Positions 53,732-64,000 are shown, numbered from the stretch's first letter. The stretch: DNA of 64,000 bases from Deltaproteobacteria bacterium (GCA_050263095.1 JBLNEW010000068.1:14570-78569), one strand, 5' to 3'. A program made the numbers and translations. Notes: generated by a model not told the origin, from the sequence alone.

Positions 53732-53806
53732 GCCGACGTAGCTCAACGGTAGAGCAGCTGATTCGTAATCAGCAGGTTGCCAGTTCAATCCTGGCCGTCG
53801 GCTCCA
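53732..53806 (+). tRNA. tRNA-Thr (anticodon CGT)
   Basis: Manual cloverleaf. Acceptor GCCGACG/CGTCGGC 7 bp, U8, D-arm GCTC/GAGC, anticodon stem GCTGA/TCAGC with loop TTCGTAA (CGU), T-arm GCCAG-TTCAATC-CTGGC, discriminator T, encoded CCA. Confidence 0.85.
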
Positions 53807-53810
53807 CCAC

Positions 53811-54329
53811 TTACAGGAAAATCACATACTTGCAAGTTGCCGAATCGCGCAGGATCATTCGGGAACGGACGAAATGTAAGGGATTAAGTGCACATTTTAG
53901 ACACATCTTGACGTACTCTAGAGATTTCCCGTTCCCGATGAGCCAGGTTGCGTAGGTGTGCCGAAGGTCGTGAAAGCGAATTTGCCGGAGGCCCGCTTTC
54001 CGCAAGCACGCTGCGAACATATGCCGAACGTTCGCCCCATCCTGCGCCGTCACTTCCACCGATTCCTCCTCATCTTCGGGGAGCCGATATATCTTCGCAG
54101 GGAATACCCACTCGGGCATGGACCGCCCTGCCTTCAACGCTTCCGCAGCCACAGCTCGCCGATGCTCAGTAAGGATAGCCGCCAGCAGGTCGGACAGGTC
54201 CACACGCCGCGCTTTCCCTGACTTCGGCGTGCTGATATGCCCTTCCCAGTTTGCACGCCGCACTTCGATGTATTTCCCATTCCAGTCAATATCGCCCCAT
54301 TGTAAGGCGATCAGTTCTCCCTGCCGCAT
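53811..54329 (-). pseudogene. tyrosine integrase (phage/P4-like), C-terminal catalytic fragment, decayed at both ends
   Basis: Box I GMRQGELIALQWGDID and box II HDLRHTYATWLI are present. The reading frame then diverges into non-integrase sequence before the catalytic Tyr region. Upstream it is joined by a frameshift to ORF 54286..54633. It is 4 nt from the tRNA 3' end. Confidence 0.7.
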
Positions 54330-56068: not shown

Positions 56069-56419
56069 ATGGTTAGGGAGATATCAAAATATAAGCCATC
56101 TTTTTCAACGTGCCCATTATGTAATAGCACTATGTCGAGTAAAGAAATACGAGGGCATGTTGTTCGGTGCCAAAAGACGAAACATATTGGTATTGGCGTT
56201 AAGCAATTATCAAAAAATACCGTATTGATTACAAAAAATATACTGTGTAAAGAATGTGGATTAGTCAAGGCCGCCACTTATGATATGAACAATAAAAGAC
56301 CGCCTAAAATTTGTAATGCATGTAAGAAAAATCCTCCTATTAAGTCGAACGATAAATTCGACCCATTAGACCGTTCTATCAGTGGTGGGGCATTTGAAAT
56401 GAATCGAAGGAGACATTAA
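56069..56419 (+). CDS. cassette ORF 1: small Cys-rich (double zinc-ribbon-like) protein, unknown function
   Basis: 116 aa. CPLC...HVVRC and CKEC...CNAC pairs. AAAAGGAG RBS. Followed 8 nt later by attC-like R1. Confidence 0.55.
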   Translation: MVREISKYKPSFSTCPLCNSTMSSKEIRGHVVRCQKTKHIGIGVKQLSKNTVLITKNILCKECGLVKAATYDMNNKRPPKICNACKKNPPIKSNDKFDPLDRSISGGAFEMNRRRH

Positions 56420-56427
56420 TTTACGTC

Positions 56428-56493
56428 GCCTAACCACCGTTTGCAGATGACGGCTTGCAGCTTTCTCGCTGAGCGCAAAGAACTGAAGCGGAG
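56428..56493 (+). repeat. attC-like site R1 (left half intact: GCCTAAC-CA-CCGTTTGCAG ... CTGAAGCGGAG; right core lost)
   Basis: RYYYAAC inverse core GCCTAAC. L''-like CCGTTTGCAG faces L'-like CTGAAGCGG with one extra G. Shares the central consensus GACGGCTyGC...CTTTCTCGCTGAGyGC with R2 and R3. Confidence 0.5.
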
Positions 56494-56526
56494 ATGGGCA
56501 GTAATAATAACAAGGGGAGATCACAA

Positions 56527-56862
56527 ATGGGAGCTGTGGAAAACATAAAAGAAATTGCCGACCTAATAAAGAAGATCGGCGATGCTGATTTGTATCGAAA
56601 GATAGTAGAGTTGGAACATGAAGTATTTGAACTTTCATGCCAAAACCTATTAAGTCTGAGTAAGATCGAAGAGTTAAAAGAAATTTTGCGTGTCAAACAG
56701 AACATCAAATACGATGGCCAAGTATACTATCTTGAGGGAGATTCCGTTCCCTATTGCCCAAAATGCTGGGAAGTTACTAGAGCACTGGTTCACCTAACAG
56801 AATCCGCGAGCCCAAGTTTTGGTCACTGTCCGAATTGTGAAAATTCATTCAGAGTTAGGTAG
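56527..56862 (+). CDS. cassette ORF 2: small coiled-coil protein with C-terminal zinc ribbon, unknown function
   Basis: 111 aa from ATG 56527 (AAGGGGAGA RBS 6 nt upstream). CPKC...CPNC at the C-terminus. Track start 56494 lies inside R1. Confidence 0.55.
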   Translation: MGAVENIKEIADLIKKIGDADLYRKIVELEHEVFELSCQNLLSLSKIEELKEILRVKQNIKYDGQVYYLEGDSVPYCPKCWEVTRALVHLTESASPSFGHCPNCENSFRVR

Positions 56863-56902: not shown

Positions 56903-57343
56903 ATGAATTTCAATCATATATGTCTCTATACCGATGGTGGTAGCAAAGGCAATCCAGGACCCGGCTCGATTGCCTTAATAATCTGTAACTCAAACAACGA
57001 AATATTACAGGAATATTCGGAATGCATTGGCCACTGCACCAATAACCAAGCAGAGTATAAAGCATTAATAAAAGGCCTCGACTTATCAGCAAGGTATACC
57101 CGGCGGAAGGTAACCTGTTACTCCGACAGCGAACTATTGATAAAACAAATGAATGGACAGTACAGATTAAAAAATGCTGCACTCAGAAAGTTGTTTCACC
57201 AAGTCCAGGACCTAGTTCGGATGTATGACGAGGTAGTATACCAACATGTACTCAGAGGAAATCAGCGAATAACGCGGGCTGACCAGCTTGTAAAGCAGGC
57301 CCATGCGGGGAGACATATTGATAAGGTGCATGTCATACCGTGA
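56903..57343 (+). CDS. cassette ORF 3: RNase HI-like (type 1 ribonuclease H fold) protein
   Basis: 146 aa. YTDGGSKGNPGPGSIA (Asp1), NNQAEYKALIKGL (Glu), CYSDSELLI (Asp2), C-terminal RADQL (Asp3). Aligns by eye to the E. coli RnhA catalytic residues; lacks the basic protrusion. Confidence 0.75.
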   Translation: MNFNHICLYTDGGSKGNPGPGSIALIICNSNNEILQEYSECIGHCTNNQAEYKALIKGLDLSARYTRRKVTCYSDSELLIKQMNGQYRLKNAALRKLFHQVQDLVRMYDEVVYQHVLRGNQRITRADQLVKQAHAGRHIDKVHVIP

Positions 57344-57347
57344 CGCC

Positions 57348-57421
57348 AGCTAACCACTGCTTGGCACTGACGGCTCGCGTCTTTCTCGCTGAGTGCCCGC
57401 AGCTGAAGCGGAGCGTTAGAC
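57348..57421 (+). repeat. attC-like site R2 (AGCTAAC ... CTGAAGCGGAGC-GTTAGAC), 74 bp
   Basis: Starts 5 nt after the ORF 3 stop and ends 24 nt before the ORF 4 start. Ends in GTTAGAC (GTTRRRY). The left end is its imperfect reverse complement. Internal L''/L' pairing with an extra G. Confidence 0.55.
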
Positions 57422-57445
57422 CGACTGAAAAATGGGAGGAGGGAA

Positions 57446-57718: not shown

Positions 57719-57753
57719 GTGGAAAAACAAACAAGGGACATTTTGTTTACGCG

Positions 57754-57826
57754 GTCTAACTACCGCTTGCAAATGGCGGCTCGCGTCTTTTCGTTTAGCG
57801 CCCGCTGCTGAAGCGGAGCGTTAGAC
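57754..57826 (+). repeat. attC-like site R3 (GTCTAAC-TA-CCGCTTGCA ... TGAAGCGG-AGC-GTTAGAC), 73 bp, best-preserved copy
   Basis: R'' GTCTAAC and R' GTTAGAC are perfect reverse complements. L'' CCGCTTGCA pairs with L' TGAAGCGG leaving one bulged G. Starts 36 nt after the ORF 4 stop and ends 15 nt before the ORF 5 ATG, with GGAGGAG between. Confidence 0.6.
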
Positions 57827-57841
57827 CGCGGAGGAGAAATA

Positions 57842-58480: not shown

Positions 58481-58489
58481 ATTAAGACG

Positions 58490-58618
58490 GTCTAACTACC
58501 GCTTGAAGCTGACAGCTCCTTCTGGTCACAGTTCTTGCGGATTGGCGGCGCACCGAAAAGCCTTGGCCGTCGGGGTAAGGCTCGCCCCTCATCTCGCGGC
58601 TTAAGCCGAACGTAAGGC
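58490..58618 (+). repeat. attC-like site R4 (GTCTAAC-TA-CCGCTTGAAGC ... GCGGCTTAAGCCG-AAC-GTAAGGC), 129 bp, long/degenerate
   Basis: Left 20 nt nearly identical to R3. Right end GCGGCTTAA(G)C..GT(a)AGGC resembles known attC 3' ends, with a degenerate core. L''/L' again differ by one extra G. Confidence 0.45.
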
Positions 58619-58641: not shown

Positions 58642-59346
58642 ATGGCCATCCTGGCATTAAGTTGTACAAAATGTGGCAAAGAAAAGCCGATATTTATGGG
58701 GGATGAATTCGCCGGCATTAGGGATGAAATTGCCGGCAATGTGATCCATTGCGATGCATGCCACGAAATAATAATAAGATGCAGAGTTATAAGAGGTTAT
58801 ATCTACGTGTTATCTAATCCGTCGATGCCAGGACTATATAAGATTGGTATGACAAGAAGGCCACTGGGAGACAGAGTTAATGAATTGGGAGCGTCAACTG
58901 GGGTTCCAACACCTTTTGTTGTTGAGGCATACTTCGAAACCAACGACCCAGAAGAGCATGAGAGAAAGGTTCATATCGCCCTTGGGGAATACCGGATGCC
59001 AAGCAAAGAATTTTTCAGACTGCGTCTTGAGGAAGTGCTGAAAGCCGTTAAGGACATATGCGGACTGGAAAGCGTATCCAATAATTATTATTTTCAGGTT
59101 AATCAAGATGATAGCCAAGCGGAATACCCCGACGGAGCCCCACGAGAGTACCGAGGACAGTCTGAGCATCTCTTTCAAAAATGTCCACCGGTTGGGCATG
59201 AAAGAATCTTCGGAATCAGTTTGAACAGCAACATGAGGGCTCAATGTCGAAGCTGTGGCGCATTGTTATCACCACGAGCATCGGTTTGTGGATTCTGTAA
59301 TAAACCTCTGGAGGACAAAGACGTAATTATTGTTGAAAAAAAGTGA
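58642..59346 (+). CDS. cassette ORF 6: T5orf172/GIY-YIG-like domain protein flanked by N- and C-terminal zinc ribbons
   Basis: 234 aa. GYIYVLSNPSMPGLYKIGMTRRPLGDRVNEL...PFVVEAYFETNDPEEHERKVHIAL...EFF matches the T5orf172 (GIY-YIG-related) pattern. CTKCGK...CDAC and CRSCG...CGFC ribbons. Confidence 0.6.
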   Translation: MAILALSCTKCGKEKPIFMGDEFAGIRDEIAGNVIHCDACHEIIIRCRVIRGYIYVLSNPSMPGLYKIGMTRRPLGDRVNELGASTGVPTPFVVEAYFETNDPEEHERKVHIALGEYRMPSKEFFRLRLEEVLKAVKDICGLESVSNNYYFQVNQDDSQAEYPDGAPREYRGQSEHLFQKCPPVGHERIFGISLNSNMRAQCRSCGALLSPRASVCGFCNKPLEDKDVIIVEKK

Positions 59347-59521
59347 CGATGTATTAGTGAAAATTGGCCTATGTGCCTAACAAGCACAGGCGTATACGAA
59401 GACATGAAAAAAAATATGATTCCTCCGCGGATGGGATATTCTCGACAAAAAGGAGGTCGACTTCGAGGTGAACAGATGTTGACATTTCCAATGCCTACGA
59501 TCCTTCAGGTGGCCTGAGACG

Positions 59522-62500
59522 ATGAACGACGAATACGCGCAATCGAATGGCATCCAAGGGTTTTCACAAAAAGTCCTCCGATATTTCCTGAACTTCCTTC
59601 AGTCGGATTTCAAGAGGCAGCATGCCCCGCGTCGTCGTATACATTTGCATTCGGATGCCGGCTTCCGAATGGGAATGCCACTCAGGAAATACGACTCACT
59701 TTACAAGGCCTCGTGGAAACTCGTCGACACCACTCCGGACGGAGGATTGTCTCTCCGGATCGCTCCCGATCAGTTCCGGGCTCCAATCAATCCGACGCTG
59801 CGTGACCTCATCCGGCAGTACATCAATGCCATCGAAGACTGCACGATTTCAGGCATAGCAAAGACCACGGTCGAGTTTGCCGCGGGGAGGATCGTATCTG
59901 CCGCGAAGGACCCGGAGAAATTCGTCGAATCCGTCCAGGTCCATTTCGCCGAAGAAATCGGTAAGCACATCGTCCAACCCCTTCTGTCTTTACTGGAGGC
60001 ACCATTCAGGGATGCAGCCTATTCGGCCATCGAGTCCATATACGAGATCGAGGCCGACCTCACGGATGTCATCGCGTCAAGAACCCTTGAGAATCTCCCG
60101 CTGGCTATCAATACGTTGATTGTCTCGGGCAACACAGCGCCAATGCGAGACCTCTTCGCGGATTCCTTCTCCCCTCAGGACGTCCGGTTCCGCGTGCAAT
60201 CGTTCTTCGTCGATGTCGCTACCTCCGACGCCTTCCAGGAACTGCGCGACCTCCAAAACTCACTGCGTTCCGCGGAAAACCAGTCCATATACCTATACTT
60301 CTGCGACTTGAAGTTCGGACACAATATTTTCCCGCTGTTCTACATTCCATCCACGCTTACATACGATGAAGGGGACCGGGCATTCATTCTCGACTTCGAG
60401 CCGCACCTTTTCGTTAACAAGCAGGCGGTCGACTGGATTCTCCAAGAACATAAGGGGGAAACAGCTTCCCTCCCCATTTCCCCAGTGGCCGACCGCATCG
60501 TCTATCTGGACGGCAAGCGGTCTTTCCTCGAGGAAATGGAGACCGTTTTCTCCCGCCTCATCCTCGCGTTCGAGTTGGCTGCCGGTATCGACCTACAGAG
60601 GAAAACACTCCAACAGGTATCCTCGCCGATGCTGAAGATCACAACCGCCGCATACCTCGCAGTCTTCGACAAGTCGGACGAATCGCTGATCAACGACTAT
60701 GAGGAGCTTCTCGCCGCTTTCAACGAGGAACAGAAGAGCGCCGGCGACCTCTTCGAAAACATCATCAAGGGTTTCTTATTCGATAACCCCGTCTCCGTTT
60801 CCTCGGCTGTCGAGTCTGCATGGGACGAGATGACCATCCCCGACCGTCTGGTAGCCGTCTCGCCGATCCCCGTGAATGAGGAGCAACGGAAGATCCTAAT
60901 GGCCTTGAAAAATCCTAACTGCAACTATGTATCCGTCCAGGGACCTCCGGGAACTGGAAAATCACACACAATCACGGCAATTGCGTTCGAAGGGATCCTA
61001 AACGGTCAGAGCGTCCTCATCCTCTCCGACAAGACCGAAGCTCTCGACGTCGTGCAAGACAAACTGGAATCAGCCCTTTCCAAGGTGCGGCACGGAGACG
61101 AAGATTTCCCCAACGCTATCCTGCGGCTGGGAAGATCCGGAGGCACCTACAACCGCCTCGTGTCCGCGTCAGCCCAAGCGAAGATCAAATGCCACCACAA
61201 AGCGGCAATCAGTCACGAGGAGGACCTCAGAAAACAATACGAAGAGACGTCGGCCACGCTGCGCGCTGACATCGGGAAAACAGTCGAATCCCTATCCTCG
61301 ATCAGGATTGATGTTCTGAACGAACTGCACGCGCTTGAAGCCGAGATCGAAACCGTCCGACCGGAGATCATCTCCAGGCTCCAGAGGCCTTCGGAGCCCG
61401 TCCGCATTCCCGTACTCGCTCCCTTGGCTGGCGCGGCCCACTTTCCCTCGGCGTCCGCGGTTCTGACCCGGGCTTTCCGGGAAGGCGGTAGCAACACACT
61501 CCAATACCTCGTCCCCCATCTTTCCGCTTGGGAGCGCGCAGGGCAACTGGCCGGGGATGTTGGACCGCGCGACCCACTGTCGGTTTTCTCCACGCTCGAA
61601 TCCAGCCACCACGAGACACTCCTCCGGTACATCGCCCGGTACGAATCGCTACGCATGCCGATTATCGGCTGGCTATTCCGGCGGGCAGCGGTTCGCGAAA
61701 CCGACCTCAAGGCCGGCTCCGATCTACCCTGTCCCGACCCGATTGACCTTCACAAGCGATTGCCGCACATGAAGCGTGCGGCTCGCGTCCTGGGTCTTCT
61801 TTGCGACACGTTCACCCGCGAGGGACTTCAGGAACATCTTGTAGGCTTCGCGTATCGCCTTCTCAGGGAAGGCGAGGCTACGCATGCTGATGTTCCCGCG
61901 CTGGCGTCTCTGGCGAGGGAGTTCTCATCGGTTATCGCTGGTTCTCCCTCGAATGCCGATACTCTGCTTCGTTCAGAGGATTTCCGAACCCCGGAGGAAC
62001 TTTTCGCATTCATCGCAAAAGCCGTCAGGTACTCCGCTCTCTGGTCAGACATCGTCGGACATATGGGGAGAGTTCCGAAGACCGACTACGTCGGCACCAA
62101 GATCCGGCTCGAGCAACTGAACACCACTCGGATGACCCGCGAGATCGACAGCCGCTTCCTCGAATTCGTCGATCAAAAGAAGGCGACGGTTAAAGAGATC
62201 GGCGGCGTCATCAAGCACAAGCAGAAATTCCCAGAGGACGAGTTCCACCACCTTTCGGACGCGTTTCCCATCATCATCGCCGGCATCCGGGAGTACGCCG
62301 AATATGTCCCTCTCAAGCAGAGGTTGTTCGACCTGGTCGTAATCGACGAAGCCAGCCAGGTGTCTGTCGCCCAAGCACTCCCGGCTGTCCTCCGTGCAAA
62401 GAAGATCGTCGTCTTCGGCGACGCAAAACAGTTCTCGAACGTGAAGTCCTCGCAAGCGAGTATCGCTATCAACGCAGGCTACCTGACCGACATCGAGGCG

Positions 62501-63910
62501 TATTTCCGAGACAACGTCGCCGATGCGACGACAAAGATCCAGCGGTTGAAGCATTTCGATGTAAAGAAATCGATCCTCGAATTCTTCGACCTCATCGCCA
62601 ACTACCAGACGATGCTCCGCAAACACTTCCGCGGCTATCAGGAATTGATCAGCTTCTCGTCGAAAACCTTCTATGACGGACAGCTGCAGGCGATTAAAAT
62701 CCGCAGTAAACCCATTCAGGAGGTGCTCCGCTTCGAGGTTCTCGAGTCTGTCCCGGAAAGCCCTGTCAAGAACGTGAACCGGGCCGAGGCCGAATTTATC
62801 CTCAAGGAACTTCGCCGGATGATCGACGATGGCGATGAGATGTCCATCGGCGTCATTACGCCGTTCCGGGAACAGGTCAAGCTCCTCAACGAGATCCTTT
62901 TCCGCGACGCGTACGGCGAAAAGTTCGAGTCCGAGCTTCGCCTGAAGATCATGACCTTCGATACCTGCCAGGGTGAGGAGCGCGACCTGATCATCTTCAG
63001 CATGGTCGCAACTGCCAAGCGGGATCTGCTCAACTATGTATTCCCCGTCACGCTCGATGCCGAAACCCAGGATTCTGACAGGCTCAAGGTCCAGCGCCTG
63101 AACGTCGGATTCAGCCGCGGCAAGGAAGCGTTTCTGTTCGTCCTCTCCAAGCCGGCCGACCAGTTTCGTGGTTCGATCGGAATCGTTCTGAACCACTACA
63201 AGAATATCCTGGATGACAGGTCCCGGGCAGACAAGCTGGGTGTTGACCCGACATCCCCGATGGAAATCAAGGTTCTCGACTGGATCTACAAGACGCCTTT
63301 CTGCCAGATCAACGAAGAACGGATCGAGGTCGTCCCGCAATTCCCGGTGGGGGAGTACCTCAGGCAATTGGACCCGTTCTATGCGCATCCGGCCTATTGT
63401 TGCGATTTCCTCGTCCGCTACTATGACGGGCAAACCACTGCCAATGTCATCATCGAATACGACGGGTTTGCCGAGCACTTCGTAGAGAGGAATAAAATCC
63501 ACAACGGGAACTGGGAACTCTACTATCGCCCCGAGGATATCGAACGCCAGATGGTCATCGAGTCCTACGGCTACAAATTCCTGCGCCTGAACCGGTTCAA
63601 CACCGGGAATGACCCGGTGGATTATATGTCGAAGCGCCTATACGAACTCGTGGAGGTAGCCTCAAAGGCCGACGAGGACAGCAGCCCTGTTGCTCATATC
63701 AAGGACGACGCGGAAGGAATCGAGAACGGTAGCAAGCGGTGTTGTCCTAAGTGCGGAGAGATCCGCAAAGCCCAAGAGTTCTGGGACCCCAAGCTCAAGA
63801 GCGGAAGTGGAGGATACGGTCGGAACTGTCTGGAGTGCAAACAGGCGGCGCTCAAGGCCCGTTCGGGAGGGAAAACAAGGAGGTGGCGTTCCCGCTATAG
63901 ATACCGTTGA
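59522..63910 (+). CDS. large SF1 helicase (AAA_11/AAA_12, Upf1-like) with long N-terminal domain and C-terminal Vsr/DUF559-like endonuclease domain plus terminal zinc ribbon; Hhe-like defence architecture
   Basis: 1462 aa. Walker A VQGPPGTGKSHTI, motif II VVIDEASQV, motif III VVFGDAKQF, motifs V/VI TFDTCQGEERDLIIFSMV...NVGFSRGK. C-terminal IIEYDGFAEHF...D..R......GYKFLRLNRF is the DUF559/Vsr-like PD-(D/E)xK pattern. CPKCGE...CLEC at the extreme C-terminus. Confidence 0.75.
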   Translation: MNDEYAQSNGIQGFSQKVLRYFLNFLQSDFKRQHAPRRRIHLHSDAGFRMGMPLRKYDSLYKASWKLVDTTPDGGLSLRIAPDQFRAPINPTLRDLIRQYINAIEDCTISGIAKTTVEFAAGRIVSAAKDPEKFVESVQVHFAEEIGKHIVQPLLSLLEAPFRDAAYSAIESIYEIEADLTDVIASRTLENLPLAINTLIVSGNTAPMRDLFADSFSPQDVRFRVQSFFVDVATSDAFQELRDLQNSLRSAENQSIYLYFCDLKFGHNIFPLFYIPSTLTYDEGDRAFILDFEPHLFVNKQAVDWILQEHKGETASLPISPVADRIVYLDGKRSFLEEMETVFSRLILAFELAAGIDLQRKTLQQVSSPMLKITTAAYLAVFDKSDESLINDYEELLAAFNEEQKSAGDLFENIIKGFLFDNPVSVSSAVESAWDEMTIPDRLVAVSPIPVNEEQRKILMALKNPNCNYVSVQGPPGTGKSHTITAIAFEGILNGQSVLILSDKTEALDVVQDKLESALSKVRHGDEDFPNAILRLGRSGGTYNRLVSASAQAKIKCHHKAAISHEEDLRKQYEETSATLRADIGKTVESLSSIRIDVLNELHALEAEIETVRPEIISRLQRPSEPVRIPVLAPLAGAAHFPSASAVLTRAFREGGSNTLQYLVPHLSAWERAGQLAGDVGPRDPLSVFSTLESSHHETLLRYIARYESLRMPIIGWLFRRAAVRETDLKAGSDLPCPDPIDLHKRLPHMKRAARVLGLLCDTFTREGLQEHLVGFAYRLLREGEATHADVPALASLAREFSSVIAGSPSNADTLLRSEDFRTPEELFAFIAKAVRYSALWSDIVGHMGRVPKTDYVGTKIRLEQLNTTRMTREIDSRFLEFVDQKKATVKEIGGVIKHKQKFPEDEFHHLSDAFPIIIAGIREYAEYVPLKQRLFDLVVIDEASQVSVAQALPAVLRAKKIVVFGDAKQFSNVKSSQASIAINAGYLTDIEAYFRDNVADATTKIQRLKHFDVKKSILEFFDLIANYQTMLRKHFRGYQELISFSSKTFYDGQLQAIKIRSKPIQEVLRFEVLESVPESPVKNVNRAEAEFILKELRRMIDDGDEMSIGVITPFREQVKLLNEILFRDAYGEKFESELRLKIMTFDTCQGEERDLIIFSMVATAKRDLLNYVFPVTLDAETQDSDRLKVQRLNVGFSRGKEAFLFVLSKPADQFRGSIGIVLNHYKNILDDRSRADKLGVDPTSPMEIKVLDWIYKTPFCQINEERIEVVPQFPVGEYLRQLDPFYAHPAYCCDFLVRYYDGQTTANVIIEYDGFAEHFVERNKIHNGNWELYYRPEDIERQMVIESYGYKFLRLNRFNTGNDPVDYMSKRLYELVEVASKADEDSSPVAHIKDDAEGIENGSKRCCPKCGEIRKAQEFWDPKLKSGSGGYGRNCLECKQAALKARSGGKTRRWRSRYRYR

Positions 63911-63965
63911 TCGAGAAAACAATACGACTCTTTGAAACCAAGAACCTTTCACAAGGAGGCGTTCC

Positions 63966-64000
63966 ATGAGGGTTGAGCTGACCTTGCCGGAAGAGTTCGC
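63966..64000 (+). CDS. start of an unidentified gene (MRVELTLPEEF...), truncated by window end
   Basis: AAGGAGG RBS 6 nt upstream of ATG; only 11 codons visible. Confidence 0.25.
   Translation, partial: MRVELTLPEEF

Follow-up and report, generated by a model that had tools for sequence, protein, structure and literature searches.

The closest described systems are large single-protein effectors of immunity. Hhe (HheA; NF042953) is a single gene with helicase and nuclease domains, whose candidate triggers map to the T7 DNA-metabolism cluster and are toxic to the cell when co-expressed with it (10.1101/2024.10.10.617714), and its helicase falls within the Upf1-like clade of superfamily 1 (SF1) (PMC10925250). 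ProA (NF058533, 'anti-phage protein ProA'; 1963 amino acids, aa) is likewise a single large protein with an SF1 Upf1-like helicase, in which RecA domain 1 (RecA1) is split by a large insertion and AAA_12 leads directly into a Vsr/MTES_1575 nuclease. It carries an extra ~370 aa before a clear Pfam DUF4011 domain and ends in a DUF3320 (winged-helix) domain. The locus considered here is a helicase-nuclease gene of similar layout in a 64,000-nucleotide (nt) stretch of DNA from a Deltaproteobacteria bacterium (GCA_050263095.1 JBLNEW010000068.1:14570-78569; 'the window' below, with positions counted from its first letter). An earlier note on this DNA had proposed the gene as an Hhe-like, single-gene defence candidate at the end of a cassette array. 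The literature searched contained no description of ProA or of the family to which this gene belongs.

Judged by its sequence, the protein belongs to a distinct family without a name, a sister of the Hhe/ProA class, in which the accessory domains have been swapped. By analogy with that class, its likeliest role is defence: the gene probably (at roughly 55%) encodes a self-contained, horizontally mobile helicase-nuclease that acts against phage or plasmid nucleic acid. The open reading frame (ORF) described in the earlier note was exactly reproduced, and all of the quoted motifs were located in it (GPPGTGKSHTI at residue 474, DEASQ at 942, GDAKQF at 966, QGEERD at 1150, EYDGFAEHF at 1312 and GYKFLRLNRF at 1350), together with the CxxC...CxxC tail (CPKC at 1408 and CLEC at 1436). 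The features of the protein are as follows.

59522..63910, + strand: complete ORF of 1462 aa plus stop, SF1B helicase / Vsr-type nuclease / zinc-ribbon protein (ORF list)
59522..60871, + strand: N-terminal domain, aa 1-450, helical bundle and beta-sheet module
60212..60466, + strand: beta-hairpin/helix core, aa 231-315, weakly DUF4011-core-like (hhalign)
60941..60973, + strand: helicase motif I (Walker A) GPPGTGKSHTI, aa 474-484, with K480 invariant in 65 of 65 family representatives
61079..62311, + strand: ~410-aa unannotated insertion in RecA1, aa 520-930, between Walker A and motif II
62312..63151, + strand: remaining helicase core, aa 931-1210 (AAA_11, AAA_12)
63239..63607, + strand: Vsr/DUF559/MTES_1575-type PD-(D/E)xK nuclease, aa 1240-1362
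63728..63847, + strand: four-cysteine zinc ribbon, aa 1403-1442, with a predicted local distance difference test score (pLDDT) of 86-92 in the model
63848..63907, + strand: Arg/Lys-rich C-terminal tail, aa 1443-1462, predicted disordered (pLDDT <50)

Relation to Hhe, ProA and other helicases

The protein was scored against the NCBIfam and PADLOC family models. In NCBIfam it reached 134.7 bits for ProA (cutoff 1500), 96.6 bits for Hhe (cutoff 2000) and 73 bits for IGHMBP2 (cutoff 349), and in PADLOC 139.6 bits for PDC-S37, 124 for MkoC, 117 for MkoA and 55 for Hhe. All of these matches are confined to the helicase core, the Hhe model NF042953 covering residues 925-1162 only, and the N-terminal, insertion and C-terminal pieces matched no PADLOC model at an expectation value (E) ≤10. 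Because the scores are low and limited to the helicase core, the protein is not a member of the Hhe, ProA, PDC-S37 or Mokosh families. By the same scores, every one of its closest annotated relatives is a defence protein and none a housekeeping helicase. The earlier note had considered that the closest relatives might instead be housekeeping enzymes, which is not what was found, as the IGHMBP2 match lies below those to ProA, Hhe, PDC-S37, MkoC and MkoA.

A tblastn search of plasmids returned Klebsiella 'DUF3320 domain-containing proteins', with the match extending through the nuclease motif. The protein WP_064360768.1 from a Klebsiella quasipneumoniae plasmid (locus L013) is a genuine ProA, with 2224.9 bits against the cutoff of 1500 and an architecture of DUF4011, split AAA_11, AAA_12, MTES_1575/DUF559 and DUF3320. 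A 40-sequence profile of the family under study aligns with ProA in one continuous hhalign block (residues 911-1397 to ProA 1282-1744; probability 99.75%, E 3e-27, 29% identity), which spans helicase motif II through the nuclease. Within this block the nuclease motifs are in register, namely SPME/SPFE, D1295, IEYDG/VECDG, H1319, D1339-xx-R1342 and GYKFLRL/GWKLLRL. The continuity of the alignment and the register of the motifs therefore indicate that the helicase-nuclease module is homologous to that of the Hhe/ProA class. The two proteins also differ. The present one has no Pfam DUF4011 domain, a shorter RecA1 insertion and two insertions in its nuclease, and where ProA has DUF3320 it carries a zinc ribbon followed by a basic tail. 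By length it falls ~350-500 aa short of Hhe/ProA. The distance from Walker A to motif II is 465 aa, compared with about 600-830 aa in those proteins.

On this evidence it is very unlikely that the gene is a true Hhe orthologue composed of DUF4011, helicase and Vsr nuclease, as the earlier note had proposed. The domain order is the same as in Hhe, a single gene is involved in both, the helicase-nuclease modules are homologous, and aa 231-315 bear a weak similarity to the DUF4011 core. However, membership is refuted by the scores given above, including a PADLOC Hhe match that covers the helicase core only. DUF4011 was found in 0 of 21 family members, DUF3320 is missing, and both the protein and its insertion are shorter than their Hhe counterparts. 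What remains of the earlier proposal is a single-gene helicase-nuclease with an Hhe/ProA-like layout.

Three further groups of proteins are relevant for comparison. The best PADLOC match, the candidate system PDC-S37, aligns its model positions 928-1155 (of 1550) with helicase residues 926-1162, and these near-equal coordinates suggest a similar layout; the helicase core alone matches, the best stretch covering about 230 of the 1550 positions. The nuclease of Mokosh belongs to the phospholipase D (PLD) family, and Pfam found no PLD domain in the present protein, whose nuclease is Vsr-type. What the Mokosh proteins MkoA and MkoC have in common with it is the Upf1-like SF1 helicase core (117-124 bits; PMC10925250). 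Finally, the eukaryotic and archaeal helicases Upf1, IGHMBP2, DNA2 and Sen1 carry the same SF1B motor motifs. The match to solved proteins of the Upf1/DNA2 type covers about 140 residues of RecA domain 2 (E ~1e-13), and the accessory domains differ. DNA2 also pairs a PD-(D/E)xK nuclease with an SF1B motor, but its nuclease is N-terminal and belongs to another subfamily.

Domains of the protein and spread of the family

The N-terminal domain is unannotated, as the earlier note had stated: residues 1-450 have no match in Pfam, NCBIfam or PADLOC at E ≤10. The AlphaFold2 model (pLDDT 76) predicts a long bundle of helices together with a beta-sheet module. When 1.84 billion cluster representatives were searched with a profile of the domain, 565 proteins were retrieved at E ≤1e-3, and among the matches listed the domain is always N-terminal in proteins of 1400-1700 aa or in fragments thereof. 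The domain is therefore private to the family.

The expectation that this region would prove to be DUF4011 was not borne out by Pfam, which gave no match at E ≤10 in the protein or in 21 family members, with a ProA control scoring 148 bits. An hhalign comparison of the N-terminal domain with a single ProA sequence found nothing, and a proper DUF4011 profile was therefore built (112 sequences, seeded from ProA) for alignment with a diversified profile of the N-terminal domain (122 sequences). The single best alignment sets aa 231-315 (YLYFCDLKFG...FPLFYIP...FILDFEPHLFVNKQAVDWILQE) against the DUF4011 core (LFLAlGFLkW...APLiLlPV.L...fN.tLLelL), a weak match with an hhalign score of 25.0, a P of 0.02 and a probability of 2%. 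Reversed-profile controls scored 13.9 and 16.8, and none of 150 block-shuffled controls reached 25.0 (mean 15.1, standard deviation 2.4, maximum 23.4). The similarity is thus weak but above the controls, as a very diverged DUF4011-like core might give, and does not amount to proof of homology.

The Upf1-like helicase was confirmed by Pfam matches to AAA_11 (residues 452-617 plus a second stretch) and AAA_12 (1026-1207). In the core, DEASQ represents motif II and GDAKQF motif III, QGEERD follows, and motif VI (NVGFSRGK) lies at residue 1194. The closest solved sequences are Upf1/NAM7, IGHMBP2, DNA2 and Sen1, which identifies the motor as SF1B and Upf1-like, and from its motifs and the structural model the ATPase motor is predicted to be intact. 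The earlier note was silent on the ~410-aa insertion in RecA1. Its length is kept at 399-419 aa in 40 homologues, and the piece searched alone (520-930) matched nothing in Pfam, NCBIfam or PADLOC at E ≤10.

The nuclease is placed directly C-terminal to RecA domain 2 and, by its motifs and the model, is predicted to be intact. Its motif set consists of SPME (1245), D1295, E1312-x-D1314, H1319, D1339-xx-R1342 and R1355. The domain gives fold matches to the catalytic domain of the homing endonuclease I-Bth0305I (7.6), Bax1 (7.3), the DUF559 protein NGO0050 (6.8) and Vsr (6.0), all of which belong to the Vsr/DUF559-type PD-(D/E)xK group. Together with the profile alignment to genuine ProA, these matches bear out the proposed C-terminal Vsr/DUF559-type nuclease. 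It has the fold and catalytic motif set of the Vsr/DUF559/REase_MTES_1575 endonucleases and falls below the Pfam thresholds for both models. When the C-terminal piece (1200-1462) was searched alone against Pfam, NCBIfam and PADLOC at E ≤10, a sub-threshold MTES_1575 match was obtained and nothing else. Two insertions in the domain (aa ~1300-1308 and ~1321-1334) are specific to the family. The MTES_1575 group was originally defined as a Vsr-type restriction endonuclease fused to SF1 helicases (PMC3710099).

The identity of the nuclease bears on an alternative in which the protein is an RNA-targeting defence enzyme, its Upf1-like motor acting as an RNA helicase that feeds phage transcripts to a RAP-like PD-(D/E)xK ribonuclease while the zinc ribbon and tail bind RNA. 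This alternative is judged improbable. The nuclease is homologous in sequence to the MTES_1575/Vsr-type DNA endonucleases (PMC3710099), the DNA enzymes I-Bth0305I, DUF559 and Vsr score nearly as high in the fold comparison, and SF1B helicases of this clade commonly take both DNA and RNA.

The four cysteines of the zinc ribbon are invariant among 40 close homologues. In a wider set of 65 representatives the ribbon is present in 45-46 (about 70%) and absent in 19, and it is an accessory of one major sub-branch of the family. Pfam gave no DUF3320 match in the protein, where the ribbon and the basic tail hold the position of that domain. Searching the PDB with profiles made from the family alignments of the N- and C-terminal parts returned chance-level matches only (nsp12, SiaP).

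More than 120 full-length homologues with 44-91% identity were found under generic names only ('AAA domain-containing protein', 'hypothetical'). The identical protein is already public and unannotated on an ENA metagenome contig, and a cluster mate comes from a metagenome-assembled genome of Deltaproteobacteria. The family comprises ~565 clusters at 50% identity, scattered across many phyla. A scan of species representatives (185,579 species) recovered at least about 50 full-length copies in, at a minimum, Acidobacteriota, Beta-, Gamma- and Alphaproteobacteria, Gemmatimonadota, Melainabacteria, Chloroflexota, Bacteroidota, Verrucomicrobiota, Zixibacteria and several lineages of the candidate phyla radiation (CPR). 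Other 'AAA_11/12 + MTES_1575' proteins were recovered in the same scan at 23-28% identity, and four family members come from IMG/VR viral contigs. Across 64 full-length cluster representatives that are 30-45% identical to the protein, the ATPase residues K480, D942, E943, Q970 and R1199 do not vary, and conservation is ≥95% at the nuclease residues E1248, D1295, E1312, D1314, H1319, R1342 and R1355. The near-invariance of both sets implies that both enzymatic activities are under selection.

A diverged relative of 1367 aa is encoded on a Priestia megaterium plasmid (NZ_CP065336.1; L014 4533-8636), with 33% identity over residues 249-1439. The first ~250 residues of its N-terminal domain are missing, the region of the DUF4011-like core is kept, and the match reaches the zinc-ribbon region.

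Genomic setting of the gene and its homologues

Around the gene, the following features were identified in the window and on the full public contig (L144).

53732..53806, + strand: tRNA-Thr(CGU) (ARAGORN and Rfam)
53760-53806: left copy of the direct repeat, equal to the 3' part of tRNA-Thr
53811..54329, - strand: truncated tyrosine recombinase of 172 aa adjoining the tRNA (Pfam Phage_integrase E 1.3e-15, profile 36-154 of 172)
56069-56419 and 56494-56862, + strand: two small CxxC-rich cargo ORFs
56423-56503, 57343-57423, 57749-57828 and 58488-58518: four ~80-nt repeats (R1 to R4) between small ORFs, with attC-like ends (GGTCTAAC ... GTTAGACC)
56903-57343, + strand: small island ORF of RNase H/RVT_3 type (E 5e-18)
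58642-59346, + strand: ORF6, T5orf172/MUG113 (GIY-YIG-like), flanked by zinc-ribbon motifs and directly upstream of the helicase
59507..59512, + strand: Shine-Dalgarno-like AGGTGG, 9 nt 5' of the ATG (read off the sequence)
63966..64000, + strand: last island ORF, ~105 aa, cut by the window end (continuing to L144 14445-14762) and preceded by AAGGAGG at 63953-63959
L144 15208-15256, equivalent to window position 64729-64777 and thus beyond the window: right copy of the direct repeat

The two copies of the 47-49-nt direct repeat have 86% identity over 49 nt; 18 nt match exactly, and the changes in the T-stem are compensatory. These compensatory differences imply that one repeat copy is island-borne and rebuilds the tRNA. 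The truncated tyrosine recombinase is the decayed integrase of the island. At the right repeat the GC content steps from 0.50 to 0.65, after which housekeeping genes resume on the full contig. The tRNA-Thr gene, the integrase fragment, the direct repeat and the GC step thus identify the helicase-nuclease gene as cargo of a ~11-kb tRNA-Thr integrative island. It has a GC content of 0.56, compared with 0.64 in the host and 0.46 in the rest of the island, whose remaining cargo is low-GC. The gene had been described as the end of the array, which is refuted by the next ORF starting at 63966, 55 nt 3' of the stop codon. This last ORF has a strong Shine-Dalgarno sequence (the AAGGAGG listed above) and no recorded Pfam match; inspected by eye, its C-terminal half looks like an excisionase/AlpA-type helix-turn-helix (HTH) protein. 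In the small ORF at 56069-56419, a C-x2-C...K-x-C-x2-C-K motif resembles the C-terminal zinc ribbon of the helicase itself.

The cassette array of the earlier note survives in part. The ~80-nt repeats exist, but R3 alone forms a strong attC-like hairpin (z -4.2); R2 folds partly, R1 is degenerate, and R4, the attC-like site said to precede the gene, is degenerate or a half-site. No integron integrase was found in the window, where the truncated island integrase is the sole integrase, and no attC-like repeat occurs in the interval from ORF6 to the gene or within the 55 nt that follow the gene. With no flanking attC, no integron integrase and a single well-folding repeat, the integron-cassette reading was rejected in favour of a tRNA-Thr island; the repeats look like a decayed attC cluster inside the island.

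The ATG start of the gene is consistent with the family alignment. The 89.7% DNA identity to the contigs of the nearest homologue (L007-L009) is limited to 59515-63908, that is, to the ORF alone. P0001, the cluster representative that is 91% identical (L007 1510-1664), is annotated 49 aa shorter than the 1462-aa protein; since the DNA homology in L007 reaches the position of the ATG, the gene call for P0001 probably starts too late. A 13-codon upstream ORF (uORF; 59476-59517) and a TTGACA hexamer (59479-59484) exist as previously described and are not conserved, the region not being common to the 90%-identical homologue. No sigma-70-like promoter passed a scan of the region upstream of the gene, and the candidate promoter and regulatory uORF were rejected on these two grounds. 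Both features are regarded as chance occurrences. The scan also found no terminator between ORF6 and the gene, and ORF6 is not a conserved neighbour elsewhere.

In 44 full-length loci, the commonest neighbour family occurs in five, with varying position and orientation. No partner gene is conserved in these loci, neither the T5orf172 ORF upstream nor the small ORF downstream. The gene is therefore a stand-alone single-gene unit. Mobile-element or defence hallmarks are present in nine of 11 homologue contexts with Pfam annotation. These contexts include IS91 with an integrase (L001); a KAP NTPase, DUF1016 and an AddAB-like pair (L003); HTH and KilA-N proteins (L007); DUF1998/MZB, ParA and transposases (L010); CHAT with tra genes of an integrative and conjugative element (ICE; L011); an integrase-bounded island packed with toxin-antitoxin modules (L140); a short prokaryotic Argonaute (Piwi) with SIR2, RelA/SpoT, Fic and a PIN/PhdYeFM toxin-antitoxin pair (L141, 2635-9399); and an integrase immediately upstream (L143). 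In L142 (1-10000), which also contains HicAB/BrnA, the homologue lies directly 3' of thrS-infC-rpmI-rplT-pheST-HU-MerR. This left boundary is the same as that of core defence hotspot 1 of P. aeruginosa, the right boundary of which is a large DUF4011 gene (10.1101/2022.11.11.516204). In L005 and L139, the gene is located between core replication genes and is followed by an ankyrin-repeat protein. Taken together, the association with defence islands is suggestive.

A rival explanation is that the protein serves a mobile element in its replication, processing or maintenance, or is a weapon against competing elements such as plasmids or other islands, rather than providing anti-phage immunity. The ICE tra neighbours in L011, the Priestia plasmid (H1), the viral contigs, the nearby integrases and transposases, and the position of the gene as the largest cargo (40%) of the island in the window are all in keeping with this explanation. 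However, there is no conserved tie to a type of element or to replication or conjugation genes, close relatives have the gene in common and not its flanks, and the gene is also found between core genes with no element nearby. Competition against other elements would, moreover, still be a form of defence. Service to an element is accordingly rated as unlikely.

The neighbourhoods further bear on a role in housekeeping or accessory DNA repair, in which a DNA2- or AddAB-like enzyme would process flaps or breaks. The helicase core resembles those of DNA2, Upf1 and IGHMBP2, the combination of a helicase with a PD-(D/E)xK nuclease follows the logic of DNA2 and AddAB, and DNA polymerase III genes (L005, L139), SbcCD (L143) and damage-repair genes (on the Priestia plasmid) are located nearby. 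Against this, the family is extremely patchy, given the number of full-length copies among the species representatives scanned. Its GC content is unlike that of the host, it sits in an island, its place varies among close relatives, and the housekeeping IGHMBP2 model scores under every NCBIfam defence model. A repair function is thus quite improbable.

Proposed role in defence

If the gene does serve in defence, the N-terminal domain and the RecA1 insertion would hold the enzyme inactive until an infection-associated cue is sensed. By analogy with the Hhe triggers, aberrant intermediates of replication or recombination could act as this cue. Next, the motor would move 5' to 3' along single-stranded nucleic acid in the manner of SF1B helicases while the zinc ribbon and basic tail help to retain the substrate, and the C-terminal nuclease would cut the tracked or displaced strand. 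The outcome would be degradation of the invader's DNA or, if the enzyme is unrestrained, of the cell's own DNA, resulting in abortive infection. A more specific proposal holds that the family is a third branch of the Hhe/ProA single-protein immune effectors, one that has a sensor domain of its own at the N-terminus and a zinc ribbon acting as a clamp on nucleic acid, is invisible to current models and has spread horizontally from Proteobacteria and Acidobacteriota to CPR/Patescibacteria and prophages. The case for this proposal is about evenly balanced.

Several points weigh against a defence role. In the scheme above, four elements are inferred: the polarity of translocation, whether the substrate is DNA or RNA, how the cue is sensed, and in which order the events take place. 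The scores against the Hhe and ProA models fall short of the cutoffs by more than tenfold and the accessory pieces have no PADLOC match, so that the transfer of function from these systems is by analogy. The homologues of L005 (14434-15216) and L139 (14644-17274), from the Burkholderiales Glaciimonas and Mycoavidus, have core-gene surroundings. When the 150 ORFs closest to the gene, drawn from 38 of the 44 full-length loci, were scanned in bulk, Pfam matches were mostly to housekeeping families with few defence models; a few resolvases, integrases and WYL proteins, one type I restriction-modification system and scattered PADLOC candidates were found. The neighbourhood evidence is qualitative and consists of raw counts. 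In addition, some DUF4011 helicases are core genes and not mobile defence genes (10.1101/2022.11.11.516204).

For annotation, the locus indicates that the 'DUF4011 + DUF3320' signature is not needed for this architecture. As a shorter relative of Hhe and ProA that has their helicase-nuclease module with swapped N- and C-terminal accessory domains, the protein offers a natural comparison for separating the sensing parts of such proteins from the executing parts. If the defence role is true, the gene would represent a compact single-gene system that is unrecognised by PADLOC-DB v2 and by the NCBIfam Hhe and ProA models, and the system would be present in CPR, Acidobacteriota and Zixibacteria, phyla with few characterised systems.

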